64,000 nt of DNA from Minisyncoccia bacterium. Lineage in GTDB: Bacteria; Patescibacteriota; Minisyncoccia; Phycocordibacterales; Zambryskibacteraceae. Shown one piece after another: positions 6,228-33,005 of the stretch. The position numbers were made by a program, and so were the translations under genes. The first letter of the stretch is position 1, and each line of letters begins with the position of its first letter. The DNA lies in NCBI GenBank assembly GCA_041742965.1, contig JBGTNQ010000003.1, positions 12,483 through 76,482 on the forward strand. Reading direction: 5' to 3'. The notes beneath the pieces were generated by a model, which was not told where the DNA came from, made no database searches, and was given only the letters and a program-made list of their open reading frames with translations.

Positions 6228-7635
6228 TTTAAATAATCTTTCAATAAAAAGAGCAAAAGATTCTTTTGAAAAAGGTGAGTATAGTCCCTCTGAATTGGTG
6301 TCAGAGTATTTAAATGTAATAGAGGAAAAAAATCCACAGATAAATGCTTATTTAGAAGTTTTTAGAGACGATGCATTGTCACAGGCAAAAGAAGCTGAGA
6401 AAAAAATAAAAGACGGAACTAGTGGAAAACTTTCAGGCATTCCTTTGGCTGTTAAAGATAATATTTTGATAGAAGGCAAGATTGCTAGTGCTTCTTCAAA
6501 AATACTTTCTTCATTCACGGCTCCCTATAATGCTACAGCCATCGAGAGGTTGAAAAAAGAAGGAGCTATTTTTCTCGGTAGGACAAATATGGATGAATTT
6601 GCGATGGGTAGTTCTACAGAAAATTCTGCATATGGACCGACAAAAAATCCACTTGATGAATCGCGCGTCCCTGGTGGTTCTTCTGGCGGTTCTGCCGCTG
6701 CAGTAGCTATGAATGGGGCTCTTGCCGGTTTGGGCACTGATACTGGTGGTTCCGTGAGACAGCCGGCTAGTTTTTGTGGGAAGGTAGGATTTAAGCCAAC
6801 TTATGGAGCCATATCAAGGTATGGCCTTATAGCTATGGGTAGTTCATTAGACCAATTGGGGACAATCACAAATACAGTGGATGATGCAGAGAAACTTTTT
6901 TCTATTATGAAGGGAAAAGATCCGATGGACAGCACTTCGTATTATCCAGAAGAAAAGAAGGCCAAAGACGGTGCTTTAACCATAGGCATACCCAGAGAAC
7001 TGTTTGACGGACTGAGTAAGGATGTACTTGAAAATGTCGAGTCGGCCATAAATAAGTTTCGGGATTTGGGATATAAAATTCTAGATATTGAATTACCGAG
7101 TGCTAAAAACGCCCTAGCTGTCTATTATATTTTGATGCCGGCTGAAGTCTCATCCAATCTTGCAAGGTTTGACGGTGTAAAGTATGGGCTTCACAAGGAA
7201 GGAGAAGATCTTTTGGATGAATATCTAAAGACTAGGGGCGAAGGTTTTGGCAAAGAAGTTCGGAGGCGTATTATGCTTGGAACATATGTGCTTTCTGCTG
7301 GGTACAGCGATGCCTACTATAGGAAAGCACTTTCTGTACAGAAGTTGATACAAAAAGAGTATGAAAAATCTTTTGAAAAAGTAGATTTAGTATTGACTCC
7401 CACTACTCCTACACCGGCCTTCTCCATAGGAGAGAAGACTAGTGATCCTTTGCAAATGTATTTGGCAGATGTTTTCACTGTACCTGCAAATATTTCTGGG
7501 AATCCTTCAATATCACTTCCAAATGGAACAGTTCCTTGTGGAGAGAAGAGTCTTCCTTTGGGTGTACAATTAATATCGTCAAATTACGCTGAAGATACTC
7601 TTTTTAGAGCAGGAAAAGATTTCTTGGGAGAATAA
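6220..7635 (+). CDS. gatA: Asp/Glu-tRNA amidotransferase subunit A (amidase)
   Basis: Amidase signature GGSSGGSAAAVA; translationally coupled to gatC. Confidence 0.9.
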   Translation: MIDLNNLSIKRAKDSFEKGEYSPSELVSEYLNVIEEKNPQINAYLEVFRDDALSQAKEAEKKIKDGTSGKLSGIPLAVKDNILIEGKIASASSKILSSFTAPYNATAIERLKKEGAIFLGRTNMDEFAMGSSTENSAYGPTKNPLDESRVPGGSSGGSAAAVAMNGALAGLGTDTGGSVRQPASFCGKVGFKPTYGAISRYGLIAMGSSLDQLGTITNTVDDAEKLFSIMKGKDPMDSTSYYPEEKKAKDGALTIGIPRELFDGLSKDVLENVESAINKFRDLGYKILDIELPSAKNALAVYYILMPAEVSSNLARFDGVKYGLHKEGEDLLDEYLKTRGEGFGKEVRRRIMLGTYVLSAGYSDAYYRKALSVQKLIQKEYEKSFEKVDLVLTPTTPTPAFSIGEKTSDPLQMYLADVFTVPANISGNPSISLPNGTVPCGEKSLPLGVQLISSNYAEDTLFRAGKDFLGE

Positions 7636-8305: not shown

Positions 8306-8371
8306 GTTGCACCGAGGCTCTATTTGGGTATAATGTGCCACACAGGCTGTGTTCGGCCAATCAGATGGCGG

Positions 8372-8640
8372 GTTGCCGTACGCACCTGATCATTACAAAA
8401 GTAGAGTATGGTCAATATAGCGGGTTGGAGGAGTAGTACCTCGCAAGGGGACAAAGACTCATAACCTGCACAGGTTAAGTTAATTAAGTGTATATTTAGA
8501 CATAGCGGGTTGCCGTACGTACCTGATCATTACAAAAGTAGAGTATGGTCAATATAGCGGGTTGGAGGAGTAGTACCTCGACAGGCTCATAACCTGTAGG
8601 CATCAGTGCAATTCTGATACCCGCAACAAGTATGAAAATA
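8372..8640. repeat. Tandem direct repeat (2 x ~135 bp) in the tRNA-Met leader region
   Basis: The unit gcgggttgccgtacgNacctgatcattacaaaagtagagtatggtcaatatagcgggttggaggagtagtacctcg...ctcataacctg occurs twice in tandem and is followed by a perfect 16-bp hairpin (8630-8672). Confidence 0.6.
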
Positions 8641-8866: not shown

Positions 8867-8941
8867 GCGGGCGTAGCTCAATTTGGTTAGAGCACTCCCC
8901 TGTCACGGGAGAGGTTGCCGGTTCAAGTCCGGTCGCCCGCG
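8867..8941 (+). tRNA. tRNA-Asp (anticodon GUC)
   Basis: Acceptor GCGGGCG/CGCCCGC, anticodon loop CUGUCAC, T-arm GCCGG-UUCAAGU-CCGGU. Confidence 0.9.
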
Positions 8942-9135
8942 CATAAAACAAACTGTCCCGGACGCGAAAGCGTTCGGGCAGTATTGTTTTACAGTGACGC
9001 CGGACTTGAAAGACGGAGGCCGCGAAGCCGTCCTGAGCTTTGCGAAGGGCGTGGCCGAGTCCGGGCAGGAGCCACTTATGACCCCGCTATGGCGGGGGAA
9101 TTAGTGAGCTGACGCCAAGTCCGGTCGCCCGCGCA
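8942..9135 (+). other. ~190-nt GC-rich structured element abutting the tRNA-Asp 3' end, ending in a 19-bp duplicate of that 3' end
   Basis: GNRA-capped hairpins (e.g. CCCGGACGC-GAAA-GCGUUCGGG and CCCCGC-UAUG-GCGGGG). The direct repeat aagtccggtcgcccgcgca occurs at 8925-8943 and 9117-9135. A near-identical copy lies at 10939-11129. Confidence 0.6.
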
Positions 9136-9214
9136 TCGAGAAAAACAGGGCTAAAAACATAGCTCTGTTTTTTATACTGACGGGATTTTGGAACCGGTGA
9201 TATACTTTTGGTGT

Positions 9215-9889
9215 ATGGAAATAAAACAATATGACTGTTTTGAAGGCGAGAGCGTAGATTTAACACAGGCAGAAGCTGTATTAAGGGAAAAACCTGATGT
9301 TATTATTCTCGAAGCACCTGCAGATAGTGAAAAGGACCCTTCTACAATCTTTAATAACTATGAAGTATATGAAAAACCAATTGAGATGGTCCTTGAATAT
9401 CAGAAGAATTTAAGAGAATCCTCAAGTAAATTTAAATGGGTTGAGTCAGATATATTCCTGTATGAAAACATTGTTAAGTTATGGAAGGAAGGGCATAACG
9501 TAGACATTTATAGAGTCGATGCGCCTGCAGAATTGTTGAAATTATCAACGGACTCCACCTGGCCGGGTTATAGAATGACTGAACCTCTTAGGAAGGGGGT
9601 GGAGTTTAAGTGGTGGGTTTACGTCTATATAAGGGAAACAATAATGACTAAAAATATCAGATTTATTTTAGAAGTTCCTCGCTATTCAGATAGAAAGATA
9701 TTGATTTTTTTGCAAAAATTTCACTGGGACAATGTTAGGTTTAGATTAGAAAATAACGAGGATGACATATTTAGCTATTATTTCTCAGATTTCAAGGATG
9801 TCAATAAAATTAATATAAACGATAAGGTGCAGGAATTAGAAAACGACATTCTCTACAAATATTGGAATAAGGTGAAAGGTCTAAGTTAA
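9215..9889 (+). CDS. Hypothetical protein (cassette 1), paralog of 49070..49738
   Basis: Approximately 45% identity over the full length to the ORF at 49070..49738 (KPDVIILEAP/KPDIIFFEAP, KLWKEGHNVDIY/TLWKNGHDIKLY, FLQKFHWDNVRF/FLQKFHWHNVKF). The start is placed at the ATG aligned with the paralog and with the conserved spacer promoter. Confidence 0.6.
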   Translation: MEIKQYDCFEGESVDLTQAEAVLREKPDVIILEAPADSEKDPSTIFNNYEVYEKPIEMVLEYQKNLRESSSKFKWVESDIFLYENIVKLWKEGHNVDIYRVDAPAELLKLSTDSTWPGYRMTEPLRKGVEFKWWVYVYIRETIMTKNIRFILEVPRYSDRKILIFLQKFHWDNVRFRLENNEDDIFSYYFSDFKDVNKININDKVQELENDILYKYWNKVKGLS

Positions 9890-10032
9890 TTTTAAGTTCT
9901 GGTAACTTTTATTGACATGTATAAAAAATGTAGTCTGAAGTTGTATTGCATTGGTAAAAACAGAGCTAAAAATATAGCCCCGTTTTTCATACTGTAGTGA
10001 TTTTTTGGTTCTAACGGGGTATACTTTTTTGT

Positions 10033-10482
10033 ATGACCATCCCCACTCACATTCTTCTCGGTGCCATTATTGGGAAAGTTACAGGGAATTATGCACTGGC
10101 AATTGGAGCGTCTGTTATTCCCGACATTGACCACTTTGGCTCATATATAAAAAGTGGGGTTATAAAAAAGCCGAAAGTTTTTTGGGACACAATCACTAGT
10201 GCAGACGACCCTCACGGAGACCAGAGAGGTATACTGCACAATTTATTTTTCTTTCTAATTATTTCTGCTCTGTTTTATATTTTTTTACCCAAAATCGCTC
10301 TTGTCTTGGTTTTGGGATGGTTTGGGCACATTATTTTAGATGCCCTAGATAAGTCAGATTACTGGCCGTTCTACCCTAACAAAAGTGTCAACATACGAGG
10401 GCTCATCAAATATGCTTCTGCTCAAGAGCTCATGTTCTTTCTGGCTCTATTAATTATATTTATAACCCTGTTCTTCTTATAG
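10033..10482 (+). CDS. Membrane protein, YdjM/DUF457-like putative metal-dependent hydrolase (cassette 2)
   Basis: TM helices with conserved His/Asp residues (PTHILLGAII...PDIDHFGSY...GHIILD). Confidence 0.45.
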   Translation: MTIPTHILLGAIIGKVTGNYALAIGASVIPDIDHFGSYIKSGVIKKPKVFWDTITSADDPHGDQRGILHNLFFFLIISALFYIFLPKIALVLVLGWFGHIILDALDKSDYWPFYPNKSVNIRGLIKYASAQELMFFLALLIIFITLFFL

Positions 10483-10515
10483 GAGGCATTTTAGAACCAG
10501 TGGTATACTTTTAAA

Positions 10516-10908
10516 ATGGACTCTACCAATGAATTTTCTTTTATATTAAAACCCTCAGAGCATGGGGTTGGAGTTTTTGCCACGCAGGATATTAAACAAG
10601 GAACACACCTGAGATTATTTGGGGATAATGAAGTGGTTAATTTGAAAGCATTAGAAAGAGAGAAAGAATCTGTTCCCGAGTTTTATCAAGAACATTGTTT
10701 AAATAGGGGAGACAAACTTATTTGTCCTCAAGATTTTGGACACATGCACATTGGTTGGTATTTAAATCACTCTAATAATTACAACGCTATTCCTGATGAA
10801 GTATATGAATGGTATGCATCAAGAGATATAAAATCTGGAGAGGAGATTCTTGTTGACTACAATACACTTGATGAACCAGACGAGTCTAAAGCTGATTACT
10901 ACAAATAA
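10516..10908 (+). CDS. SET-domain protein (putative protein-lysine methyltransferase) (cassette 3)
   Basis: GVGVFATQDIKQGTHL, NHSNNYN (NHSxxPN-like) and GEEILVDY motifs. Confidence 0.7.
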   Translation: MDSTNEFSFILKPSEHGVGVFATQDIKQGTHLRLFGDNEVVNLKALEREKESVPEFYQEHCLNRGDKLICPQDFGHMHIGWYLNHSNNYNAIPDEVYEWYASRDIKSGEEILVDYNTLDEPDESKADYYK

Positions 10909-10938
10909 TAGTTCTAACCTCCTCCACCAAGTTGCGCA

Positions 10939-11129
10939 TAAAACAAACTGTCCCGGACGCGAAAGCGTTCGGGCAGTATTGTTTTACAGTGACGCCGGAC
11001 TTGAAAGACGGAGGCCGCGAAGCCGTCCTGAGCTTTGCGAAGGGCGAGGCCGAGTCCGGGCAGGAGCCACTTATGACCCCGCTATGGCGGGGGAATTAGT
11101 GAGCTGACGCCAAGTCCGGTCGCCCGCGC
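10939..11129 (+). other. Second copy of the ~190-nt structured element, internal to the cassette array
   Basis: One mismatch relative to 8944-9135. It is preceded by the degenerate tRNA-Asp 3'-end-like motif CCACCAAGTTGCGCA and ends in GCCAAGTCCGGTCGCCCGCGC. Confidence 0.6.
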
Positions 11130-11200
11130 TGATGAGATTTTCACCATTAAATCCTTTAACCATAAGGATTTTTTGGTTCTAACCTGGTATTATTTTAGGT

Positions 11201-11728
11201 ATGAAATATATGAAGTTTATTAGAATTTTTCTCCTAGTTTTAATTGTTATTGGATTGGGACTGATTGCTACTCAAAAAATGTGGGTACCGAAGCTTGTAA
11301 CTCAAATATTGAACCGAGGGGACATGGTAGTTAACAAAGAGATTATTCCAGATGAGGCATCAGCCTTCGGAGATATATCTGGAGATAATAAGATTGTTGT
11401 TTCTGGAGTGTATAGTTACAATCAATTTATTGGCACTCTTCCATCACTAGATTTTTACGTTGATGAAGTCACCGCACATTTGATACCCCGAGGATTTGAT
11501 GATGATCGAATTCCGTGGTTTGGGATTTTAAATCAGGAGAAGGCTATGGCCTTATTGGGGATTAGTTCTAAAGAATTAGGAGGGAATATCTGTGAGATTA
11601 AAGGGAATGCAGAAATAGAGATATCAAAATACTTAATCTATCGAGGGGAGTCCGAGGGAAAAGATGGAGCGACTCTAACAAAATTGTTGAAGGTTAGCCC
11701 TCCCACCTATATCAATTGTACAAATTAG
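11201..11728 (+). CDS. Hypothetical membrane-anchored/secreted protein (cassette 4)
   Basis: N-terminal TM/signal MKYMKFIRIFLLVLIVIGLGLIA; no recognisable domain. Confidence 0.5.
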   Translation: MKYMKFIRIFLLVLIVIGLGLIATQKMWVPKLVTQILNRGDMVVNKEIIPDEASAFGDISGDNKIVVSGVYSYNQFIGTLPSLDFYVDEVTAHLIPRGFDDDRIPWFGILNQEKAMALLGISSKELGGNICEIKGNAEIEISKYLIYRGESEGKDGATLTKLLKVSPPTYINCTN

Positions 11729-11836
11729 GTTGGTTCTAACATCCTCCACCAAGTTGCGCATCGAGAAAAATAGAGCTAATAATATGGCTCTATTTTTTAT
11801 ACTGATGGGATTTCAGAACCGTGATAATATTTTGGT

Positions 11837-12733
11837 GTGATAAATCTAATTGGATTACAGAAAAATGTATCTCTAGCACCCCATACCACTTATAAAATTG
11901 GCGGAGTCGCAGATTATTTTATTGTCGCTAAATCAAAAGAAGACCTCATTAATGCAGTTTTGATAGCAAAGAAAAATGAGATTCCTTATTTTATTCTAGG
12001 GTCTGGAGCAAATATTCTTGTTGGTGATAAAGGATTCAGGGGTCTGGTTATAAAAAATGAATCAAAAAAAATCACTTTCGATAAAACATTTGTAACAGTA
12101 GATAGCGGGGTTATTTTATTAGATTTGATTAAAGAAACCTTGGTGCACAGCCTGTCTGGTTTAGAACATTTTGCTGGGATTCCTAGTACTATAGGAGGTG
12201 CTTTGTGGCAAAATCTTCACTTCCTTTCTCCAGATAGGCAAACAACATTATTTATTGAATCAGTTATTGATTCAGCTGAGATAATGGATGAAGATGGTGA
12301 CTTAAAGAAAGTGGATAAAAGCTTCTTTAATTTTAGTTATGACTACAGTATTTTGCACGACAGAAAATTATTGGTGACTGAAGCAACTTTTTCTCTTGAG
12401 CCAAAAGATAAAAATTTGATAAAGAATCAAATAGAAGAGAATTTAAGGTGGAGAAATAAAAAACAGCCGCAGCTAGATGAGTTCCCCTCCTGTGGTTCTG
12501 TATTTAAAAAGATAGATGGAGTCGGGGCAGGGAGGCTCATTGATGAAGTTGGACTAAAGGGACATCAAATTGGAGGAGCGCAAATATCAAACAAACATGC
12601 GAATTACATAGTGAATTTAGGAAACGCAAGCGCCCAAGACGTGTTAGATATCATAACTCTAGTTCAGAATAAGGTAAGGTCAGAATTAGGACATGCCCTA
12701 GAGACTGAAATAAGTTTTATTGGAGAATTTTAA
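11837..12733 (+). CDS. murB: UDP-N-acetylenolpyruvoylglucosamine reductase (cassette 5)
   Basis: FAD-binding N-terminus (APHTTYKIGGVADYF...ILGSGANIL) and a MurB C-terminal domain; GTG start. Confidence 0.85.
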   Translation: MINLIGLQKNVSLAPHTTYKIGGVADYFIVAKSKEDLINAVLIAKKNEIPYFILGSGANILVGDKGFRGLVIKNESKKITFDKTFVTVDSGVILLDLIKETLVHSLSGLEHFAGIPSTIGGALWQNLHFLSPDRQTTLFIESVIDSAEIMDEDGDLKKVDKSFFNFSYDYSILHDRKLLVTEATFSLEPKDKNLIKNQIEENLRWRNKKQPQLDEFPSCGSVFKKIDGVGAGRLIDEVGLKGHQIGGAQISNKHANYIVNLGNASAQDVLDIITLVQNKVRSELGHALETEISFIGEF

Positions 12734-12845
12734 TTGTATAGCAGTTCTAACTTCCTCCACTAAGTTGCGCATAGAAAAAAGTAGGGCTAATAATATGGCT
12801 CTATTTTTTATACTGATGGGATTTTAGAACTGATATACTTTTATT

Positions 12846-13571
12846 ATGAAAATCATATCTTTGAATACATGGGGAGGACGTATTCATGAACCACTCTTAA
12901 ATTTTTTCGAGAAGCACAAAGACGCTGATATTTTTTGTCTACAAGAGATTTACCACGAAGCTAGAGGAAAGGAGAATGATGACGAGTATCAAAATGACGC
13001 CCACAATCTTTTTATAGATATTCGAAACATATTAAATAATCATAAAGGATATTTTAGACCTGCGGTCGGTGATTACTACGGTTTAGCGATATTTGTTAAA
13101 AATGACATACACGTAGAGCAAGAAGGCGACATATCTATATACTCTGTCGAAGAATATAAAGGTGGTGGTAATCACTCAAGAAATCTCCAATACATTAAAC
13201 TTATAGACAAGGAGAGTAAACTCCTGGTAGCCAACGTGCATGGGATTTGGAATGGTAAAGGGAAAACAGATACCCCAGAGAGGCTAGAGCAATCTAAAAG
13301 GATAAAGGAGTTTCTTAATGAAATGAACAGCAAAACAGTATTGTGTGGAGATTTCAATCTTTTACCAGATACTAAAAGTGTGAAAATTTTAGAGGAGGAT
13401 ATGGAAAATTTGGTTAAAGAATATGGAGTAAGTACCACCAGGAGTAGTTATTACACTAAACCAGAGAAATTTGCCGATTATATTTTTGTTACATCAGGTA
13501 TTAAGGTCAAGGATTTTAAGGTCTTACAAGATGAGGTGTCTGACCACCTACCTTTGTTAGTCGAGTTCTAA
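12846..13571 (+). CDS. Endonuclease/exonuclease/phosphatase (EEP) family protein (cassette 6)
   Basis: ISLNTWGG...FCLQEI...NVHG...SDHLPLLVEF, the hallmark motifs of the EEP fold. Confidence 0.7.
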   Translation: MKIISLNTWGGRIHEPLLNFFEKHKDADIFCLQEIYHEARGKENDDEYQNDAHNLFIDIRNILNNHKGYFRPAVGDYYGLAIFVKNDIHVEQEGDISIYSVEEYKGGGNHSRNLQYIKLIDKESKLLVANVHGIWNGKGKTDTPERLEQSKRIKEFLNEMNSKTVLCGDFNLLPDTKSVKILEEDMENLVKEYGVSTTRSSYYTKPEKFADYIFVTSGIKVKDFKVLQDEVSDHLPLLVEF

Positions 13572-13737
13572 CGCCATGCATTCGCTTTGCTCAGCACCTT
13601 CGGTCCACTAGGTTGCGCAACAAACAAAAACATTAGATCTTGTGTCTAGTGTTTTTGTTTTGCAAAAAGCTTTGAAATTCTATAATATTTAAGCCGTTCT
13701 TTTGAATTGTGCGCCAGTGTATATGTTTTGTTAGTTT

Positions 13738-14000
13738 GCCAATGTAGCTCAGTTGGTAGAGCACCCCCATGGTGGATCGTAAGATTCTGCCCAGCCAAAA
13801 GGTAACTTTTGGATGAATCCCGAATAACGGTTAAAGTCCTACAAAGGGATAAGACCGTGGCCCTGAAATATCTGAAGGGCCCGAACGACTGACAAGGGTT
13901 CGCCCAAGGCGAAAAGATACAGTCTAGTCCTCTCATATAAATAAAAGAGAGGTGTAAACGAAGGGGGAGGTCATCGGTTCGATCCCGATCATTGGCTCCA
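13738..14000 (+). tRNA. tRNA-Thr (anticodon GGU) interrupted by a ~187-nt group-I-like intron between positions 36 and 37; CCA encoded
   Basis: Exon 1 (13738-13773) is GCCAAUG-UA-GCUC-AGUUGGUA-GAGC-A-CCCCC-AUGGU. Exon 2 (13961-14000) is AA-GGGGG-AGGUC-AUCGG-UUCGAUC-CCGAU-CAUUGGC-U-CCA. The intron spans 13774-13960, with a U at the exon-1 end, a terminal G and an AAGAUACAGUCUAGUCC P7/P9.0-like stretch. Confidence 0.7.
13774..13960 (+). ncRNA. Putative group I intron in the tRNA-Thr anticodon loop
   Basis: Insertion 3' of anticodon nucleotide 36, the position used by the tRNA-Ile and tRNA-Arg introns of proteobacteria. The exon ends in U and the intron ends in G. An HNH endonuclease gene lies immediately downstream. 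Confidence 0.55.
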
Positions 14001-14077: not shown

Positions 14078-14530
14078 ATGGCTAACCCAAAAAAACCGCG
14101 CCCCAAGTGTCCGACATGTGGCAAAGAGCCTGCTCGGTCATTCTACAAATATTGTAGTAATAGATGTCAGCAGGAATATCAGCGTGCGCGTTATCTTAGG
14201 GAATGGAAGGCCGGGAAAAGAAGTGGCCTGCAAACTATAGGAATTGTCACGGTGACAATAAAACGTTACCTTAGAGAAAAATTCGGGGATAAATGTTGTA
14301 TTTGTGGTTGGTCGAAAGTTAACCCAAAAACCGGGAAGGTCCCATTGGTCGCTGACCACATTGATGGGAATTGGCGCAATAATGCAGAAGAAAACCTTCG
14401 TTTGATATGTCCAAATTGCGATGCATTATTGCCAACGTTTTCCGCGCTAAATAAAGGTAATGGCAGGGAAAATAGGGCGCCAAGAAAAAGAACTCAAGAA
14501 GCGACGGAGTTTTTAAAAAAGCCAAAGTAG
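14078..14530 (+). CDS. HNH homing-endonuclease-like protein
   Basis: CPTCG...CSNRC zinc ribbon followed by CCICGWS...VPLVADHIDGNWRNNAEENLRLICPNCD, an HNH motif with a flanking CxxC pair. Confidence 0.8.
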   Translation: MANPKKPRPKCPTCGKEPARSFYKYCSNRCQQEYQRARYLREWKAGKRSGLQTIGIVTVTIKRYLREKFGDKCCICGWSKVNPKTGKVPLVADHIDGNWRNNAEENLRLICPNCDALLPTFSALNKGNGRENRAPRKRTQEATEFLKKPK

Positions 14531-17955: not shown

Positions 17956-18300
17956 GTGGGGATTGAGGCATCAGCGTATTTCGGCACACATCAGGAGGAC
18001 GGGACAGTTTTCCCGTGCATAGTCTTGTCTGGCCGTCGCGGTAAGGTGCTTTTTGTTTCCAAGGATGGTGGTCACAAGGCGATTGGGTTGTTGTTGGGGT
18101 GCAGGCTTATCGACAAGTATGAGGCCGACCTGCTCACCCACGAGATTTCTTTATCCAGCATTCCTGATGATACCCACATCGAGGATGCTCTACTCGCCAT
18201 AGCTAATGTCGCTTTTGTGGCGACAGCTATGTCTCGGCCAGCCGTTGTTGAGTCTGTGAGGTCCCCGGTAACGCCGCCGAGCAAGGCCCACCTCAACTGA
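17956..18300 (+). CDS. Hypothetical protein in a GC-rich islet
   Basis: Strong promoter, SD and terminator; ~55% GC against a ~38% background; no recognisable domain. Confidence 0.5.
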   Translation: MGIEASAYFGTHQEDGTVFPCIVLSGRRGKVLFVSKDGGHKAIGLLLGCRLIDKYEADLLTHEISLSSIPDDTHIEDALLAIANVAFVATAMSRPAVVESVRSPVTPPSKAHLN

Positions 18301-18307
18301 TTTCCCG

Positions 18308-18350
18308 AAACCCCCGCCAGCGAGCTCGCTGGCGGGGGCGAAGTTTTTTA
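18308..18350 (+). terminator. Rho-independent terminator
   Basis: CCCCCGCCAGCGAGCUCGCUGGCGGGGG followed by a U-tract. Confidence 0.7.
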
Positions 18351-18377
18351 TTTGGTTTCAAAAAAATCAGGCGCGCA

Positions 18378-26399: not shown

Positions 26400-26864
26400 A
26401 TGAGCATCATTTCCACGAGCACGATTCTGTTCTACGAAGGTCCGCATTACTACCTTTCCAACTTCTCCTCATTCGCCATTATCATTGAGGGAGAGATTTG
26501 GATGACAGTGGAGCACGCGTATCAGGCCAGCAAGTTTCCTGCCGAACGGTCTGAAATCCGGACAAGGATTCAGCGGGCGCTTTCTGCTCACGATGCCAAG
26601 CAGATTGCCAAGGCGCACAAGGGTGAAGCTTGTCCAGATTGGGACAAGAGGAAGCTCTCTGTAATGGAGGCACTTCTTCGCACCAAGCTGGAACAGCATT
26701 CGTATGTTCGAAGGAAGTTGTTGGAAACCGGCAATGCCAAACTGGTGGAGGATTCCCCAAAAGATTCTTTCTGGGGAAGGGGACCAGACTGGGGCGGCCT
26801 GAACCACCTCGGGCGCCTGTGGGAAAGGATTCGCGCCGAAGTGATGTTGGCGCCACACCCTTGA
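26400..26864 (+). CDS. NADAR-domain protein (YbiA/DUF1768-like)
   Basis: ILFYEGPHYYLSNFS...WMTVEHAYQASKF...DSFWGRGPDWGGLNHLGRLW. The gene has ~55% GC and is followed by a strong terminator at 26886-26920. Confidence 0.7.
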   Translation: MSIISTSTILFYEGPHYYLSNFSSFAIIIEGEIWMTVEHAYQASKFPAERSEIRTRIQRALSAHDAKQIAKAHKGEACPDWDKRKLSVMEALLRTKLEQHSYVRRKLLETGNAKLVEDSPKDSFWGRGPDWGGLNHLGRLWERIRAEVMLAPHP

Positions 26865-26983
26865 TATGGCGCTCAGAAAAAATAACAGACCCGCCGATTA
26901 CTCGGCGGGTCTGTATAGTATTACAAGATTAGTGGGCGTATAATATAAATATAGATTTCAAATTATTAGTTAAATTTATTTTT

Positions 26984-27409
26984 ATGAAAAATTGGAATAC
27001 TTTAGTTTATGTGAAGCTTCGCATCGTCATGGGCCTCATTTTCTTGTGGGCCTTTTTTGATAAATTGTTAGGTCTTGGTTTTGCTACTAAAGCAGAAAAC
27101 GCTTGGATTAATGGTGGTTCGCCCACATATGGGTTCCTCACTCATGGCACAAAGGGGCCTTTTGCTGAGTTTTTTCAGAGTTTAGCCGGTGTCGCTGTAG
27201 TAGATTGGCTTTTCATGCTTGGACTTCTTGGTGTTGGAGTAGCTCTCGTTTTTAATAGATATGTTAAATGGGGTGCGATTGCAGGAAGCGTGATGATGTT
27301 TCTAATGTATATCGCCGCTTTTCCACCAGAAAACAATCCGCTACTTGATGATCATATAGTTTACATTCTCGTTCTGGCTATTTTGGCAATGAGGTCTAAA
27401 GACTCATAA
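26984..27409 (+). CDS. DoxX family membrane protein
   Basis: Four TM helices in the DoxX/DoxD pattern. Confidence 0.65.
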   Translation: MKNWNTLVYVKLRIVMGLIFLWAFFDKLLGLGFATKAENAWINGGSPTYGFLTHGTKGPFAEFFQSLAGVAVVDWLFMLGLLGVGVALVFNRYVKWGAIAGSVMMFLMYIAAFPPENNPLLDDHIVYILVLAILAMRSKDS

Positions 27410-27461
27410 ACTTTTGGTGTTTTGCGTATAAAAAAAGTATGCCATTTGGTATAATTAAATA

Positions 27462-30131
27462 ATGAAATGGTATTCTTTTTCTCCTGAAAAAGTACTTGAG
27501 AAATTAAATACGAGCAGAGAGGGCCTCACTGAACAAGAAGCAGAGAGGCGCTTTCTTGTTAATGGGCCAAATCAGTTGCCGAAAGCAAAACCAGATTCTC
27601 TTTTCATTATATTCTTAAAGCAATTTCAAAGTCCTCTGATTTATATACTGATGTTCGCGACTGCGATTGTCTATTTGATGGGGGACACGGCTGACGCTCT
27701 CATTATTTTGGCTGTTCTTTTTATAAACGCATTTATAGGAACCTTTCAAGAGGGAAGGGCCCAAAATACTCTTAGGGCGCTTCAGGATTTTGTCACCACA
27801 GAGGCCACCGTTGTTCGTGATAGAGATGAAAAGATTATTTCTGATGAACACCTGGTAGTTGGAGATGTGATTTTGCTTTCTGAAGGTGACCAAGTTCCAG
27901 CTGATGCGAGGATTCTTGAATCATCAAGTCTTAAGCTGGATGAATCTTCTTTGACTGGAGAGTCTGTGCCGGTTATGAAGTCTTCTGATACTCTGTCGCC
28001 GAAAGAAATTATACCTGGAGATCAAAAGAATATGGTTTTTAGGGGAACTTTTGTTGTAGGTGGTAGCGGATATGCGGTCGTCGTATTGACTGGCGTTGAT
28101 ACAGTCATAGGTCAGATTTCAAAAGAGCTTTCTCAGATTGATACGGACATACCTCTCAAGAAAGATATAAAGAGTCTTTCAAAGTTGATTATCATCGTGA
28201 CATCTGTGGCAATGTTTGTCATCTTTTTGCTTGGTATATACCAAAACATATCTGTTAGGGAAATGTTTAAAACAGTTGTAGCGATTGCAGTTTCCGTAAT
28301 TCCAGAAGGTTTGCCGGTGGTTGTAACCTTGATTCTTGCAGCAGGAGTTTCTCGTATGAGTAAGAGAAAGGTGTTGGTGAGAAGACTTCAAGCCGTTGAA
28401 GCTTTGGGTCAAGCCAATATTATCGCTGTTGATAAGACAGGGACACTCACACTAAACCAGATGATGGTAGAGCACCTCTTTTCTGGAGGAAAATTGTATA
28501 GCGTTTTAGGTAATGGCTATGAACCCAAGGGTGCTATAAGTGGAGAAGATGGAGCTATTGATTTGCTTTCTCATACACACATACTTTTGGCAGGCAAGAT
28601 TGCGGGGTTTAATTCATCTGCCAATGTTGCTTATTCAGAAGAAAAGAAAATGTGGCAAAAAGTTTATGGAGACCCCACAGAAGCGGCCCTTTTGGTTTTT
28701 TCTCAAAAAGTTGGATTTCATAAAGATGTATTGTTGAGGGAGAGTCCGCTTATCTTAGACCTACCATTTGATTCCAATTTTCGTTTTCGGGCTTCTATAA
28801 ATTCCGTTGAAGGAAAACCTTTTCTTTCTGTGGCTGGCGCACCAGAGGCATTGCTTCCACTTTGTAATAAAGTTCTTGGTCATGAGGGGGTTAAAGATAT
28901 GTCAGATGAAGAAAGGGGAGCTCTTCAATACAGAGTCACAAAACTTTCTAGTCAGGGTTTCAGAGTCTTAATGCTTGCCTATGATGAAAAATCACCAAAG
29001 ACAATAGACCAATCTAAAATGCCAAAACTGGTCTTTGCAGGCTTGGTGGCAATGAGTGATACGGTGAGAAGTGAAGCGAAAGACGCTATAGATCTCGCTC
29101 ATAGCGCGGGGGTTAGGGTGGTGATGATAACGGGGGATCATATGCTTACTGCCAAGGCTATTGGTGAAGGACTAAATATTTGGAAAGAAGGAGATGAGAT
29201 AATATCTGGTGAAGAACTAGCCAGTCTTTCCCCAGAAGATCTTTCAAAGAGACTTTCTAAAGTTAGTATATTTGCCAGAATCACACCGCAGGATAAACTT
29301 AAAATTATCGAGGCCTTTAGAGCGAGGGGTGACATCGTGGCGATGACTGGAGATGGTGTAAATGATGCACTCTCTCTAGCGGCAGCTGATCTTGGTGTTT
29401 CTATGGGTAACATTGGGACAGAGGTAGCCAAAGAAGCTTCTGATATCATCATCACCGATGACAATTTCGGCTCTATTGTTTCTGGTATTGAAGAAGGAAG
29501 GGGTATATATGCCACCATAAAAAAGGTGGTTCTTTATCTTTTGTCTACTAGTATCGGCGAACTGTTTACAATCGTGGCTGCCATATCGCTTCTCCTGCCA
29601 GTACCTTTGACTGCTAGTCAGATTATTTGGCTAAACTTTGTTACAGATGGTTTCCTTGTCGTCGCTCTAGCTATGGAACCGAGAATTTCCATGCTCAATA
29701 ATAGGATAAATAAGAAAAACAAAATCATTGATAGATTTATGGTTGAGAGGATGTTTGTTCAAGGTATAACTATGATGTTTGGTACGGTATGGCTTTTCTC
29801 GCTTTATTTGTCAGAAGGATTTGCAATGGCTTCAACTGTAGCTTTGACAGTTTTGGCCATATTTCAGTGGTTTAATGTCTGGAATTGTAGACACGGTAGT
29901 GAAAAAAATAATGAACGTTTACCAGCAAACTGGAGTCTCTATGTCGCCACTCTGGTGGTGGTGATCCTCCAATTAATGGCTGTTTATATGCCAGTCTTTC
30001 AGAGTATATTAAAAACCGTGCCTTTAGAAATTTTTGACTGGGTATTAATACTTATGGTTTCTTTGACCATATTTGTTACAGATGGAGTTTGGAGAAAGAT
30101 TAGATCTGGCGCTGTTTCTCTGGGTCACTAA
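27462..30131 (+). CDS. P-type cation-transporting ATPase (P2-type, Ca2+/Mg2+-like)
   Basis: TGES, DKTGTLT, TGDGVNDA and ten TM helices. Confidence 0.9.
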   Translation: MKWYSFSPEKVLEKLNTSREGLTEQEAERRFLVNGPNQLPKAKPDSLFIIFLKQFQSPLIYILMFATAIVYLMGDTADALIILAVLFINAFIGTFQEGRAQNTLRALQDFVTTEATVVRDRDEKIISDEHLVVGDVILLSEGDQVPADARILESSSLKLDESSLTGESVPVMKSSDTLSPKEIIPGDQKNMVFRGTFVVGGSGYAVVVLTGVDTVIGQISKELSQIDTDIPLKKDIKSLSKLIIIVTSVAMFVIFLLGIYQNISVREMFKTVVAIAVSVIPEGLPVVVTLILAAGVSRMSKRKVLVRRLQAVEALGQANIIAVDKTGTLTLNQMMVEHLFSGGKLYSVLGNGYEPKGAISGEDGAIDLLSHTHILLAGKIAGFNSSANVAYSEEKKMWQKVYGDPTEAALLVFSQKVGFHKDVLLRESPLILDLPFDSNFRFRASINSVEGKPFLSVAGAPEALLPLCNKVLGHEGVKDMSDEERGALQYRVTKLSSQGFRVLMLAYDEKSPKTIDQSKMPKLVFAGLVAMSDTVRSEAKDAIDLAHSAGVRVVMITGDHMLTAKAIGEGLNIWKEGDEIISGEELASLSPEDLSKRLSKVSIFARITPQDKLKIIEAFRARGDIVAMTGDGVNDALSLAAADLGVSMGNIGTEVAKEASDIIITDDNFGSIVSGIEEGRGIYATIKKVVLYLLSTSIGELFTIVAAISLLLPVPLTASQIIWLNFVTDGFLVVALAMEPRISMLNNRINKKNKIIDRFMVERMFVQGITMMFGTVWLFSLYLSEGFAMASTVALTVLAIFQWFNVWNCRHGSEKNNERLPANWSLYVATLVVVILQLMAVYMPVFQSILKTVPLEIFDWVLILMVSLTIFVTDGVWRKIRSGAVSLGH

Positions 30132-30306
30132 TAAGCAATTCAGGACGGCGCGCTTAAAGCGTGCCGTCCTGATGAGTCTTACTCCTGTCTTTCGCGAAGC
30201 TTCTTGACTCGCTCCACGATGATGCGGAGGGCGGAAAGGATGAGTTCTGTGCGATCCGCCTTGAAATGCGGGGGAGCTGATGGTATTAACTCTGCGTGTT
30301 CTCCAC

Positions 30307-30621
30307 TCATCCGGTCGTCACTCCCACTGTATGAGAGAAGCGTCCACGAAGCTCGGTCGCGAGTCGCTTCCTGTCCTTCTCGCTGATTTTGCCGTGGTTG
30401 CGTGCCTCGGTGAGCTCTTGCATTCCGTCTTCAAGGGAATTGAATTCTCGGCTCTCGCTGATTTCGAAGACGATTCGAAGCCCGTTATCTGCCACCTCAA
30501 TACTGGGCTCAAAGATATTCCACACATCTCCCTCCAGTTGGTTTAGGGTTCGTCGCTTGCGATGGATACAAGAAAAGGTACCTTCTCTCTCAATTAGACC
30601 ATAAATTAAATCTAAATACAA
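30307..30621 (-). CDS. Hypothetical protein in a GC-rich islet, followed by a 43-aa ORF in an ATGA overlap
   Basis: The N-terminus MYLDLIYGLIEREGTF is faintly reminiscent of a LAGLIDADG motif. A second ORF at 30312..30181 overlaps its stop. Confidence 0.3.
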   Translation of the reverse strand: MYLDLIYGLIEREGTFSCIHRKRRTLNQLEGDVWNIFEPSIEVADNGLRIVFEISESREFNSLEDGMQELTEARNHGKISEKDRKRLATELRGRFSHTVGVTTG

Positions 30622-30693
30622 ATTTATTCAAGGATTTTGGACAACTCAACTCGCGTGTTAATATAACGATGATTATTAAATATCCAATTCTCT

Positions 30694-31233
30694 ATGAAAT
30701 TAAATTCACTAATCTATATTATTATCGCTGTTCTAGTCGTCGGAGCTATATTTTTTGTTGGCAAAAAAGAAAATAGTGGATCACTCTCTCCTAGTCAGGA
30801 TTCAAATTCATCTGAAAAGTTAATTGAAAACACGGGGGCACTATCAATGCGCGATTTGGTGTCTAGAGATGAATCTGTTCGTTGTACCTTTGTTCATGAT
30901 ACAGAAATGAGCAAATCTTCCGGAGAAGTTTTCGTAGCTCAAGGTAAAATTAGAGGTAACTTTGATGTAGTGGCCGTTGGGGCTCAAGGTGAACAACCTT
31001 TTAATGCATATATGATATCCGATGGTGATATGTCATATATTTGGTCTTCCGTTCTTCCTCAAGGTGTAAAGATTCCTCTTTCTCAGCTAGAAGAGCAAAG
31101 TTCGGATCAGGCCTCAGAGGGTATAAGTTATAATACGAAACTTAACTACTCTTGCGAGCCATGGCAGGTTGATAACTCTGTCTTTGTTCCACCGACCTCC
31201 GTTTCTTTTGTAGGGGTACCGCAAACACAGTAG
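30694..31233 (+). CDS. Hypothetical membrane-anchored secreted protein
   Basis: N-terminal TM MKLNSLIYIIIAVLVVGAIFFV. Confidence 0.45.
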   Translation: MKLNSLIYIIIAVLVVGAIFFVGKKENSGSLSPSQDSNSSEKLIENTGALSMRDLVSRDESVRCTFVHDTEMSKSSGEVFVAQGKIRGNFDVVAVGAQGEQPFNAYMISDGDMSYIWSSVLPQGVKIPLSQLEEQSSDQASEGISYNTKLNYSCEPWQVDNSVFVPPTSVSFVGVPQTQ

Positions 31234-31255
31234 TAAAGTATTTTCTTGAAAACTT

Positions 31256-32392
31256 ATGAAGCGTCTCTTATTTATAACAATCCTACTCTCTTTTCCAGCT
31301 CTTGTATTTGGGGCCTCTTTCGGAGCGGCTAGAGAGTATCTTCTTCGCCAAGGGGAGGTTATAGAAGGGGATTTATACGCAGTTGGGACTACTGCCACTT
31401 TGGTAGGTAGTGCTTTGGGCGATGTGTTTTTGTTGGGCGGAAATGTTTTTGTTGGTAATTCCGTCTCTCAAAGTGCTTTCCTTATTGGTGGGACGGTCGA
31501 TATTATAGGATCCGTTGGCCAAAACCTTCGCATTATATCTGGTAAGACTCTTTTTCGTGGAGATACGGGTGAGGACTTTGTCGCAGTGAGTAGTGATATA
31601 CAAATTCTTCCGGAATCTGTAATAAATGGAAATCTCTCTGTTGCTTCAGGTAGGGCAGTGATTGATGGAGAAGTAATGGGCAGCCTTAAGGGCGTGGTAG
31701 GCGAACTTATCTTGAATGGAAAAATTGCTGGTGATGTAGATGTTACTGTTGATAGTGTGACTTTGGGTCCTAATGCTCTGATTGAAGGTTCTTTTTCTTA
31801 TTCCTCCCCAAAACAAGTGGTTATTTTGGGCGAGGGACAGATTTTGGGTGAGGTTTTCTACACGGAGTTTGATACTCGTTCTAAAGCAGAGCAGTTTCTT
31901 CCCACGCTTTGGGGTACTTGGATATTTGTCAAACTAATCATTCTTATGGTTTCTGCTTTAGTAATGCATGGAATATTTCGTTCAATTTCCAATTCTTTTG
32001 TAGAGAGAGCTGTTCGTGTGCCTGGATGGAGTGTCGTCAGGGGCTTTGTTTTTATGGTAGCTGTACCAGTAGCTCTATTTGTTACAGCTTTAACTCTAAT
32101 AGGCATTCCATTTCTAATTTTAGGATTATCGGTTTATGTCGGGTTTTTGGTTTTGGCCTACTTCTTTTCCCCGATTATTATAGGTTCTGTTGTCTTCAAA
32201 TATATATACAAGACACCAGAAATACCTGTTAATTGGAAGAGTATAGTAACCGGCGTATTTCTAGTGGTATCGTTAGGGTTTTTAGGTTGGATTGGAAACA
32301 TATTACATACCATCTTGTTCTTAATCACTTTAGGTGCCATATATCAAGGTCTCTTTGAGAGATTCGTTTCTGCTCGTGAGAAAAATGAATAG
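31256..32392 (+). CDS. Hypothetical beta-helix-repeat protein with signal peptide and C-terminal TM domain
   Basis: Signal peptide, repeated G-x-V/I hydrophobic repeats (bactofilin/DUF4097-like) and four C-terminal TM helices. Confidence 0.4.
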   Translation: MKRLLFITILLSFPALVFGASFGAAREYLLRQGEVIEGDLYAVGTTATLVGSALGDVFLLGGNVFVGNSVSQSAFLIGGTVDIIGSVGQNLRIISGKTLFRGDTGEDFVAVSSDIQILPESVINGNLSVASGRAVIDGEVMGSLKGVVGELILNGKIAGDVDVTVDSVTLGPNALIEGSFSYSSPKQVVILGEGQILGEVFYTEFDTRSKAEQFLPTLWGTWIFVKLIILMVSALVMHGIFRSISNSFVERAVRVPGWSVVRGFVFMVAVPVALFVTALTLIGIPFLILGLSVYVGFLVLAYFFSPIIIGSVVFKYIYKTPEIPVNWKSIVTGVFLVVSLGFLGWIGNILHTILFLITLGAIYQGLFERFVSAREKNE

Positions 32393-33005
32393 ATATAAAT
32401 ATATAATAGTCGCCCTTTTAGTGTGCTTTCCTATTTATTTTTTGTTTTTTAGTAAAGAAAATATTGCTAACTATCCTTCTAGTGGAGAAGGTATAGTCGC
32501 TTTTGGAGATAGTCTTGTAGAGGGTGTTGGAGCCAGCCCTTCTCTAGATTTTGTTTCTTTATTGAGTTTAAAGACAGGAAGACAGATAGTAAACTTCGGA
32601 CTTTCCGGTGATACTACTTCTTCCGCTAGAGATAGATTACCTGAAGTTTTTGCCAGAGTACCAAACCCGGAAGTAGCCATAATCCTCTTGGGTGGTAATG
32701 ATTTTTTGAGAAAAATACCCCAGGAGGAGACTTTTCGTAATTTAGAATTTATTATTAATGAGTTTCAAAAGAGAGGAAGTGTTGTGTTATTGTTGGGGGT
32801 AAGGGGAGGTATTTTAAATGATAGGTTTGATAAAGATTTTAAAAAATTATCTGACCGTTTAGAGACCGCCTTTGTTCCAAATGTGCTTAAGGGTATTATA
32901 GGGAATCCAAAGTTTATGTATGATTCCATCCATCCTAACGGCTTAGGGTATGAGCATATGGCAGAGCGTATTTTGCCCGTGTTAAGTAAGATTATAATAG
33001 ATTAA
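32385..33005 (+). CDS. SGNH/GDSL hydrolase
   Basis: AFGDSL (block I), LLGGNDFL (block III) and DSIHPN (block V); start at MNRYKY. Confidence 0.7.
   Translation: MNRYKYIIVALLVCFPIYFLFFSKENIANYPSSGEGIVAFGDSLVEGVGASPSLDFVSLLSLKTGRQIVNFGLSGDTTSSARDRLPEVFARVPNPEVAIILLGGNDFLRKIPQEETFRNLEFIINEFQKRGSVVLLLGVRGGILNDRFDKDFKKLSDRLETAFVPNVLKGIIGNPKFMYDSIHPNGLGYEHMAERILPVLSKIIID

Follow-up and report, generated by a model that had tools for sequence, protein, structure and literature searches.

A fast-changing array of small gene units with tRNA-like ends in a conserved tRNA hot spot of a Paceibacteria-type bacterium

Two kinds of described system come closest to the locus reported here, namely integrons, together with clusters of attC sites lacking an integron integrase (CALINs), and islands that grow by serial accretion at tRNA genes. 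Integron core sites follow the consensus RYYYAAC/GTTRRRY, and the tandem accretion of cis-mobilizable elements (CIMEs) and integrative and conjugative elements (ICEs) is a comparable form of tRNA-anchored island growth. The tycheposon islands of Prochlorococcus contain scattered partial tRNAs, left behind when elements integrate one after another at tRNA sites (doi 10.1101/2020.12.28.424599). Here we analysed a 64-kb window, meaning the whole stretch of DNA under study, of a metagenome-assembled genome (MAG) contig from a Paceibacteria/Parcubacteria-type bacterium of the candidate phyla radiation (CPR), whose RF2 reaches a top identity of 79% to that of any GTDB species representative. In CPR bacteria, or Patescibacteria, genomes are very small, few mobile elements have been recognised, and gene exchange is poorly understood. 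In this window, six mutually unrelated genes on the + strand (9215-13571) lie 3' of a tRNA-Asp gene, accompanied by short repeats and by a structured element that we call E. Together they form a genuine array of small gene units that turns over fast in a conserved tRNA hot spot, and the 3' end of tRNA-Asp is its anchor, the counterpart of an attB or attI site. The array represents a sequence-defined platform for gene exchange that combines a tRNA end with tRNA-like tags and with one-gene units, each under its own promoter.

Like integrons and CALINs, the array has serial, mostly one-gene units, a lineage-specific imperfect-palindromic repeat, a fixed anchor site, fast turnover of content between close relatives, stop codons that sometimes lie in the repeat, and non-coding units. 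Unlike them, it is anchored at a tRNA 3' end and not at attI, has a promoter in every unit (a box and an extended -10 element at each gene, in place of promoterless cassettes behind a common Pc promoter), carries a tRNA-derived repeat that seems to lack R/L-box attC anatomy and has its junctions at GCGCA; no IntI was found with it. With tRNA accretion islands it shares the tRNA hot spot, newer insertions that push older ones inward, scattered partial tRNAs, accessory cargo and a streamlined host genome. In contrast to those islands, its units measure 0.2-1.8 kb and hold one to three genes, no integrase or integrase fragment is seen, and its tags are a conserved diverged motif instead of the product of random decay, with a matching inverted box in each unit. 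The array works like an integron or like tRNA-island accretion, but it is not an integron: IntI was not found, each cassette brings its own promoter and the repeat appears unlike attC. A preliminary description of the locus had suggested serial tRNA integration or an integron-like array; the variable, tRNA-anchored array stands, whereas no recombinase was found and the spacers do not appear to be canonical attC sites.

The repeat anatomy is plain in the window. Gene calls and Pfam bear out the earlier statement that six unrelated genes follow one another. In 6/6 of them an RGAAC or TCTAAC box abuts an extended -10 element 6-8 nt 5' of the start codon, and the combination of box and extended -10 occurs six times in the window, always inside the array. 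The ~80-bp unit previously described before each gene is correct for this promoter box, while the full spacer of hairpin, T-tract and promoter exists in four copies (starting at 9147, 9962, 11772 and 12783, against a chance expectation of 0); g3 has the promoter part alone, overlapping the end of g2 (box at 10486-10509), and the spacer of g4, spacer B, has another hairpin. The unit with three genes, M2, contains an internal spacer (9890-10032) with a hairpin and a direct GGTTCTAAC box. Near-leaderless starts, also pointed out before, are present but not specific to the array, given that TGnTATAAT lies 6-8 nt 5' of the start in at least ten other window genes. On the 3' side, the motif earlier noticed after four genes is found as four exact matches to TCCACYARGTTGCGCA (10923, 11745, 12756 and 13604), with no other in the 64 kb. 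Three of the four copies have the 29-nt form (A/G)GTTCTAACnTCCTCCACYAAGTTGCGCA; the fourth, 3' of the EEP gene, represents a long form of 56 nt, interrupted by an internal insert, and the EEP stop codon falls within its TTCTAAC. The spacer, 3' motif and promoter box units have no copy in the rest of the 64 kb, and the exact 3' motif had 0 matches in JGI metagenomes. A general promoter family as the source of the spacer similarity, which the preliminary description had named as an alternative, does not hold within the window: motifs and box are confined to the array, and we rejected a genome-wide family on that ground, leaderless starts alone being genome-wide.

The order of these parts is suggested by the 12-mer GTTCTRANNTCC, which is similar to the T-arm sequence GGTTCAAnTCC. 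It has ten matches in the window at no more than one mismatch, seven of them in the 4.5-kb array, as are 5/5 of the exact ones. Within the array, matches 3' of genes are on the + strand and those in the promoter boxes 5' of genes on the - strand, the promoters of g2 and g4 having the box in direct and not inverted orientation. From this placement, each unit would consist of a terminator, an inverted T-arm-like box, a payload and a direct tRNA-3'-like motif. As read from the sequence, the junctions between tRNA-Asp and E1, E1 and spacer A, and the 3' motif and E2 each fall directly after GCGCA, as do the two junctions between 3' motif and spacer A and the one between the long motif and the terminal terminator; at the seventh, between E2 and spacer B, only GCGC is found and the A is absent. 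The 3' motif holds the junction position equivalent to the true tRNA end, and intermediate forms in two relatives (GTCCACTAGTCCGCGCA in L088 and TCCACTAAGTCGCGCA in L089, compared with TTCAAGTCCGGTCGACCGCGCA in tRNA-Asp) substantiate the earlier proposal that it resembles the tRNA-Asp 3' end.

The preliminary description overlooked E, a 192-nt GC-rich element present twice in the array at 99% identity. Where it had the array bounded by decayed tRNA copies, the array in fact also contains two perfect copies, within this separate structured element: the final 19 nt of tRNA-Asp are found again at 9116 and 11111, and E1 and E2 each terminate in the 3' 19-20 nt of tRNA-Asp, CAAGTCCGGTCGCCCGCGC(A). 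E1 begins with a terminator hairpin (8946-8990), continues with the T-arm/acceptor of the tRNA in inverted copy (~8996-9008) and with a three-way-junction core, and closes with the tRNA-Asp 3' end in direct copy (9116-9135); it folds at -96.3 kcal/mol (z = -5.6). It is flanked by two identical 20-nt tRNA-Asp ends, the direct repeats that characterise tRNA-integrating elements. Both copies are insertions: E1 relative to L089, where tRNA-Asp adjoins spacer A directly, and E2 relative to L088, whose junction between motif and spacer B has no E. The insertion point of E2 lies directly after the GCGCA of 3' motif copy 1, and the E2 junction is reproduced in an independent Logan contig (L003). Because E2 carries the tRNA-Asp end at a non-tRNA site, this end belongs to the element. 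The gene units appear to share the layout of E, with promoter and gene replacing the RNA core. The long-form 3' motif and E's own 3' end also have CT[G/A]ACGCCA in common, and the long form may likewise be homologous to the decayed copy in L010, but we treat both homologies as suggestive only, the 10-mer pattern having a chance expectation of ~9 in the searched loci.

The hot spot and the turnover of its content emerge directly from the relatives. The backbone of gatA, a gene for a 218-aa protein, tRNA-Met, tRNA-Met, tRNA-Asp, a variable segment, tRNA-Thr, tRNA-Thr and prfB is found in more than 20 of them, in which the interval from the 218-aa-protein gene to prfB ranges from 118 to 9281 bp and its tRNA-Asp to tRNA-Thr part from ~60 bp to ~7 kb. 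None of the six array genes occurs in the 10-kb prfB flanks of these genomes, and the intervals hold unrelated accessory genes (Nramp, M29 peptidase, DEAD helicase, glycosyltransferases, P-type ATPase, ABC transporter). The two relatives with the closest MurB (78% identical in each) have arrays of the same kind with other genes. In L089 the array has three units: tRNA-Asp joins spacer A without E and is followed by a DoxX-like open reading frame (ORF), TCCACTAAGTCGCGCA joined to a spacer, murB, AGTTCTAAC... and then ORF179, whose stop codon lies within TTCTAAC. L088 has tRNA-Asp, E and seven units (ORF81, ORF196, GDSL lipase, ParD/ParE, Zn-peptidase, a small ORF and murB), most of them closing with AGTTCTAACnTC(C/G)TCCACTAGnCCGCGCA-type motifs. 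The MurB proteins of L088 and L089 are 90% identical, and murB is the single gene that the two arrays have in common. Positions 11144-11196 of spacer B are 92% identical to L088 1280-1331, and this spacer precedes g4 in the window and an unrelated lipase gene in L088. The motifs persist longer than neutral sequence and are kept at 70-78% MurB identity: L094 (74%) has the same boxes and motifs and, upstream of murB, a long form homologous to that of the window (common CATTCGCTnnGCTCAGCACCTTCGG), and in L097 (70%) murB is preceded by a GCGCA end and by a AGTTCTAAC box in direct orientation. The same six genes in the same order, the observation named at the outset as one that would speak against cassettes, are not shared by the relatives, whose differing content therefore favours a variable cassette array.

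The position of murB inside the array, noted before, is correct, but this gene was not recently captured. The nearest MurB homologues are 78, 78, 73, 73 and 71% identical, the same range as for RF2, and murB occupies the same interval in 5/6 relatives with examined context (L088, L089, L094, L095 and L097). We rejected a foreign or captured murB, since it has diverged as much as RF2 and keeps its position across the subclade; murB is a native, ancestral resident of the interval.

We give an even chance to the reading that E-like units accrete and turn over at tRNA-3'-like ends via a recombination activity acting in trans. A unit would consist of a terminator hairpin, an inverted T-arm-like box, a payload and a direct tRNA-Asp-3'-like motif ending in GCGCA, the payload being a structured RNA core in E and an extended -10 promoter with one to three genes in the gene units. 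Units would join head to tail exactly after GCGCA and be gained, lost and exchanged by recombination at the tRNA-3'-like ends. In an excised unit, circular or other, the tRNA-like end would adjoin the unit's own terminator as an attP equivalent, which could then recombine with the tRNA-Asp 3' end or any earlier copy, the equivalent of attB or attI, by an enzyme acting in trans; murB would be the old resident around which the array grew. The recombination step and its catalyst are what we infer here, and a number of observations weigh against them. The assembled contigs showed neither a circular form nor an empty site nor a rearrangement within the population, the only 'empty' states being comparative (E1 absent in L089, E2 absent in L088). 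The near-identity of the three short 3' motifs means that they were copied from a single diverged sequence and did not arise as attR sites that decayed independently; the motifs could be kept for regulation, as an operator next to the -10 element. The RNA-level conservation of E, described below, suggests a function other than, or beyond, that of a DNA recombination site, and murB stays put across relatives. In agreement with the earlier remark that no integrase is visible, Pfam searches of all ORFs of at least 110 aa in the 64 kb gave no Phage_integrase, IntI, other recombinase or transposase. The 8 kb beyond the right end of the window contain no recombinase, the ten largest island ORFs of relatives include no recombinase or integrase, and no recombinase is enriched around 123 E copies, among the matches listed. 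Genes of the tycheposon type for integration and replication (tyrosine recombinase, helicase/primase) are likewise absent from the window ORFs and the relatives' island ORFs. The only recurrent genes beside tRNAs and the listed E copies encode small GIY-YIG, HNH and LAGLIDADG endonucleases, which may supply breaks but are not recombinases. GIY-YIG ORFs of ~80 aa recur in L080, L089 (1982-2236), L013, L015, L023, L028, L034, L045, L074 and L079, directly beside a tRNA in L080, L089, L013, L023, L028 and L034 and just after prfB in L015.

Table 1. Positions of the array parts, the E copies and the flanking tRNA genes in the 64-kb window
Feature	Positions	Strand	Description
tRNA-Asp(GTC)	8867-8943	+	ARAGORN, Rfam; 3' end ...CAAGTCCGGTCGCCCGCGCA
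E1	8944-9135	+	repeat; 192 nt, GC-rich
Spacer A copy 1	9136-9214	+	TCGAGAAAAA, hairpin, T-tract, inverted T-arm-like box (9183-9194, - strand), extended -10 TGATATACT
Unit M2 payload	9215-10908	+	g1, internal spacer, g2, promoter box, g3
g1	9215-9889	+	product unassigned by Pfam (no match)
g2 YdjM	10033-10482	+	Pfam YdjM
g3 SET	10516-10908	+	Pfam SET
3' motif copy 1	10910-10938	+	AGTTCTAACCTCCTCCACCAAGTTGCGCA
E2	10939-11129	+	99% identical to E1
Spacer B	11130-11200	+	hairpin AAATCCTTTAACCATAAGGATTT, T-tract, direct GGTTCTAAC box, -10 TATTAT
g4	11201-11728	+	175 aa, hydrophobic N-terminus; no Pfam family
3' motif copy 2 and spacer A copy 2	11732-11836	+	motif 11732-11760, then spacer 11761-11836
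murB	11837-12733	+	GTG start; Pfam MurB
3' motif copy 3 and spacer A copy 3	12743-12845	+	motif 12743-12771, then spacer 12772-12845
EEP-family nuclease/phosphatase gene	12846-13571	+	Pfam Exo_endo_phos
Long-form 3' motif and terminal terminator	13564-13660	+	AGTTCTAAC, 31 nt, TCCACTAGGTTGCGCA (13564-13619); then terminator hairpin (13622-13660)
tRNA-Thr(GGT)	13738-14000	+	distal hot-spot anchor, read from sequence; exon 1 13738-13773, exon 2 13961-14000
E3	18834-19032	+	after tRNA-Gln (18762-18833); family consensus GAAAGCCGGAG...GAGGCGGGGTCG...GTGACC

Beyond the array, E is a conserved structured RNA family whose helices are backed by compensatory changes. In prfB-anchored loci, a copy of a tRNA's own 3' 18 nt occurs elsewhere in the locus for 9/33 tRNA-Asp, 7/109 tRNA-Thr and 7/49 tRNA-Gln genes, and nearly all of these copies lie 90-250 nt downstream of the tRNA; flanking by tRNA-Asp ends as in E1 is seen in L010, L020, L021, L039, L066 and L076, and elements at tRNA-Thr and tRNA-Gln are flanked in the same manner by the ends of those tRNAs. 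The elements between tRNA and end copy mostly fold as a three-way junction, closed by a helix of the inverted and direct tRNA-end copies. The inverted arm is the equivalent of the acceptor 5' strand plus the T-stem 5' strand, and E therefore resembles a minihelix of the adjacent tRNA in which the T-loop is replaced by YGAAA-P2-GGGGUCG-P3-GUGAC, with strongly conserved junction nucleotides. The sense strand is the more stable one in 24/25 elements (mean -8.9 kcal/mol, p = 2e-7), with a twofold G.U content. A pattern scan of metagenomes found E in at least 120 contigs; among the 123 matches listed, 97 have a same-strand tRNA no more than 400 nt upstream, covering ~20 amino-acid types, and in 62 the 14 nt after GTGAC copy the end of the adjacent tRNA. 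Over 84 sequences, for which the search pattern had imposed the conserved motifs but not the helices, 87.4% of cells are paired compared with 68.4% in shuffles (0/500) and 32-44% when slid; both sides have changed in 22/29 pairs and one G.U pair is invariant, and RNAalifold finds compensatory changes in 12/17 predicted pairs. For the inverted arm, a duplex-energy scan was noisy in GC-rich elements and was replaced by motif-anchored pairing and column counts. Scanning the E copies with cmscan against Rfam 15 (gathering threshold; E<=1) returned tRNAs only, and known families, including hammerhead, twister-sister, hatchet, HEARO and T-box, were rejected for want of a covariance-model match; the core sequence is not that of a hammerhead either, having GG and not UH at the P2/P3 junction and CUGUGAC without A6. 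A literature search on integrons or attC in CPR, or on the E RNA, found nothing relevant.

Further copies illustrate the range of the family. Tandem E copies are found in L020, L112, L127 and L138. Type 2 cores, near-invariant GGGGTCGGGAGA..TCTCCCGTGGAGGAAGGATTGGGAAAACCGTGGGTTTCCCAG, are present in L005, L010, L015, L028, L031, L046 and L056 and are common to tRNA-Asp, tRNA-Thr and tRNA-Gln sites across different genomes, and a type 3 core, GGGGTACTGACCCTGTAAGGGTCGA, occurs in L015 and L018. Viral contigs with the type 2 hairpin (4 matches against ~25 expected by our own estimate) were not used as evidence, and one such match near a phage integrase/attP is GC-rich and unrelated. Gene payloads bounded by a tRNA 3' copy exist here too: in L080 (16444-16891) a GIY-YIG ORF lies between tRNA-Gln and an end copy preceded by GTGAC, and in L046 a 2-kb insert 3' of tRNA-Gln (18250-20303) carries a putative Fic-type protein (HPFxxGNGR motif), a 64-aa ORF and an E-like end with a tRNA-Gln 3' copy. 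In the window itself, E3 accounts for a local G+C peak (0.51) at its position; in it, 14 inserted nt separate GTGACC from the copy of the tRNA-Gln 3' end, and another terminator lies 3' of the element. Just 3' of E3, a YcaO-nitroreductase fusion protein is encoded at 20052-22241, with no evident link to the array.

Of all parts of the locus, the E RNA family is the one most likely to be new in kind: an abundant family missing from Rfam 15 that is found, in environmental CPR genomes, beside tRNA genes for almost every amino-acid type and that may be a recombination site, a processed small RNA or a selfish element. Miniature inverted-repeat transposable elements (MITEs) resemble it in that inverted-repeat brackets surround both E and the gene units and in that E is short, non-coding, multi-copy and sometimes tandem. 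Unlike MITEs and insertion sequences, E has arms that copy the adjacent tRNA and change with it, no short target duplication and no transposase found with it, and in contrast to MITEs it is conserved at the level of RNA structure, with G.U pairs on the sense strand. Recombination sites that act as folded single strands are another point of reference, as in integron attC and in the CTX phage attP used by XerCD; inverted and direct partial sites ~100 nt apart could likewise fold in E into a duplex that mimics the target, but the many G.U pairs in its helices speak for RNA, as does its strict co-orientation with tRNA transcription. Finally, tRNA-like RNA ends are known from the tRNA-like domain of tmRNA, viral tRNA-like structures and mascRNA-type processing. 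As in these, the 5' and 3' ends of E pair into a helix resembling acceptor plus T-stem that ends at the discriminator or an encoded CCA, whereas the E helix copies the neighbouring tRNA and has no fixed sequence, and its T-loop is turned into a conserved three-way junction.

What moves the units can be explained in other ways. An ordinary flexible genomic island, in which homologous recombination after DNA uptake uses tRNAs and short repeats as anchors and no site-specific recombination takes place, seems to us rather unlikely, though well worth weighing; the repeats would form a local family of modules for regulation, each made up of terminator, operator box and extended -10, with the 3' motif serving as a signal in regulation or termination. 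Such an island fits the lack of a recombinase in anything examined, the box adjoining the -10 element in 6/6 promoters (the operator model concerns the GTTCTAAC boxes), the leaderless promoters and hairpin terminators that are the genome's usual style, the stable murB, the local intergenic repeat families at other loci in relatives, and L095, where the same genes are tightly packed without spacers; type IV pilin and prepilin-peptidase genes in the window may point to DNA uptake. However, it leaves unexplained why the 3' motif mimics the tRNA-Asp end with the same GCGCA as the E insertions, why GCGCA precedes every junction and why L088 and L089, so close in MurB, have no other cassette in common. 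RecA-type recombination would be marginal with homology arms as short as 25-30 nt. An integron-type array of the CALIN kind, with the spacers as folded attC sites (R''=TTCTAAC, R'=(G)TTAGAA) and an IntI-type integrase elsewhere, we hold to be very improbable. The folded single strands of the two full spacers do form an outer stem GTTCTAA/TTAGAAC, an 8-9-bp inverted repeat similar to the integron consensus, with z = -2.4 to -3.7 for three of four folds and -1.4 for the fourth; some stop codons lie within TTCTAAC, and the homology of the murB unit among the window, L088 and L089 begins at about TAGAAC/AGAAC. Yet no IntI was found in the ORFs searched, these sites mostly have T or A in place of the G of GTT, and where an L box with extrahelical bases would be expected, the inner part shows a one-sided bulge of 14 nt and a terminator hairpin. 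In addition, no cassette is without a promoter of its own, the box stands in direct orientation in two promoters, and the E insertions and junctions fall at GCGCA in the middle of the 'site', not at G|TT.

The RNA of E offers a further set of explanations. That E RNA itself specifies or assists mobility, by guiding a recombinase with its inverted tRNA-complementary arm, by ribozyme activity or by retro-mobility, with the gene units as E derivatives moved by the same RNA-dependent system, strikes us as quite unlikely. It would agree with a covariation-supported RNA whose terminal helix pairs the inverted and direct ends of the neighbouring tRNA, whichever tRNA that is, with its highly conserved junction nucleotides, with E2 keeping its tRNA-Asp end at a non-tRNA site and with the same layout of inverted box and direct motif in the gene units. 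It sits less well with the lack of a partner protein (DEDD, TnpB or reverse transcriptase) near any E copy among the matches listed, with the inverted box of the gene units, which lies upstream of the likely transcription start and would be outside the mRNA, and with a core that is not a hammerhead and matches no known ribozyme family in Rfam. It is also unlikely, if a little less so, that a single undescribed CPR mobility system takes two forms, E and the gene units, with RNA-guided or RNA-assisted insertion at tRNA-3'-like ends, in which a three-way-junction RNA capped by a tRNA minihelix would copy the adjacent tRNA end and direct insertion, and gene-loaded derivatives would build integron-like arrays without an integron integrase. 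An assembly artefact as the source of the repeat structure has next to no probability in our view: the window does come from a MAG contig, and the repeats interrupt the short-read Logan contigs of the same sample, yet independent Logan contigs reproduce the gene, motif and E junctions, and independent assemblies from other samples (L088, L089/L090, L094) show the same architecture.

The distal end of the hot spot and the surrounding DNA provide additional observations. The window tRNA-Thr(GGT) has a ~187-nt insert in the anticodon loop, after the anticodon, and was missed by ARAGORN and Rfam; in relatives the gene is uninterrupted at this position. Group I introns are documented in Patescibacteria tRNAs, at position 35/36 of tRNA-Asn and tRNA-Asp (PMC13011429). 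In the tRNA cluster of L015, ARAGORN finds no tRNA-Asp but Rfam detects a group I intron (6773-7069; 56 bits), which is consistent with the intron-hidden tRNA-Asp genes published for Patescibacteria (PMC13011429). Between the two tRNA-Thr genes of the window lies an HNH-type endonuclease ORF (14078-14530), with homologues (61-64% identical) upstream of prfB in L047 and L030. Upstream of the first tRNA-Met, 8365-8443 and 8502-8580 form a 79-nt duplication (97% identity) that includes a promoter and a disrupted tRNA-Met 5' half (pseudo-tRNA at ~8419-8475). In L088 and L089, the block of tRNAs, array and murB is inverted relative to ligA-gatC-gatA and the 218-aa-protein gene, making murB (or ORF179) convergent with the latter, while window and L097 are co-directional. 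In a spacer of L088 (592-668) the promoter is repeated in inverted orientation, so that CACAAAAATTCTACCACAG faces CTGTGGTAGAATTTTTGT, which would form a long hairpin across the -10 element and start codon or else a divergent promoter.

Some cassette families of the relatives are found outside the array here: NADAR, DoxX-like, P-type ATPase and GDSL lipase genes lie at 26367-33005, ~13-20 kb away, and the DoxX-like protein is 63% identical to ORF145 of L089. Genes of the same kinds are thus part of the array in one lineage and lie at a different locus in another. Further downstream, 45508-48267 encodes a 919-aa homologue of VirD4/TraG-like coupling proteins (weak Pfam matches), with no evident link to the array.

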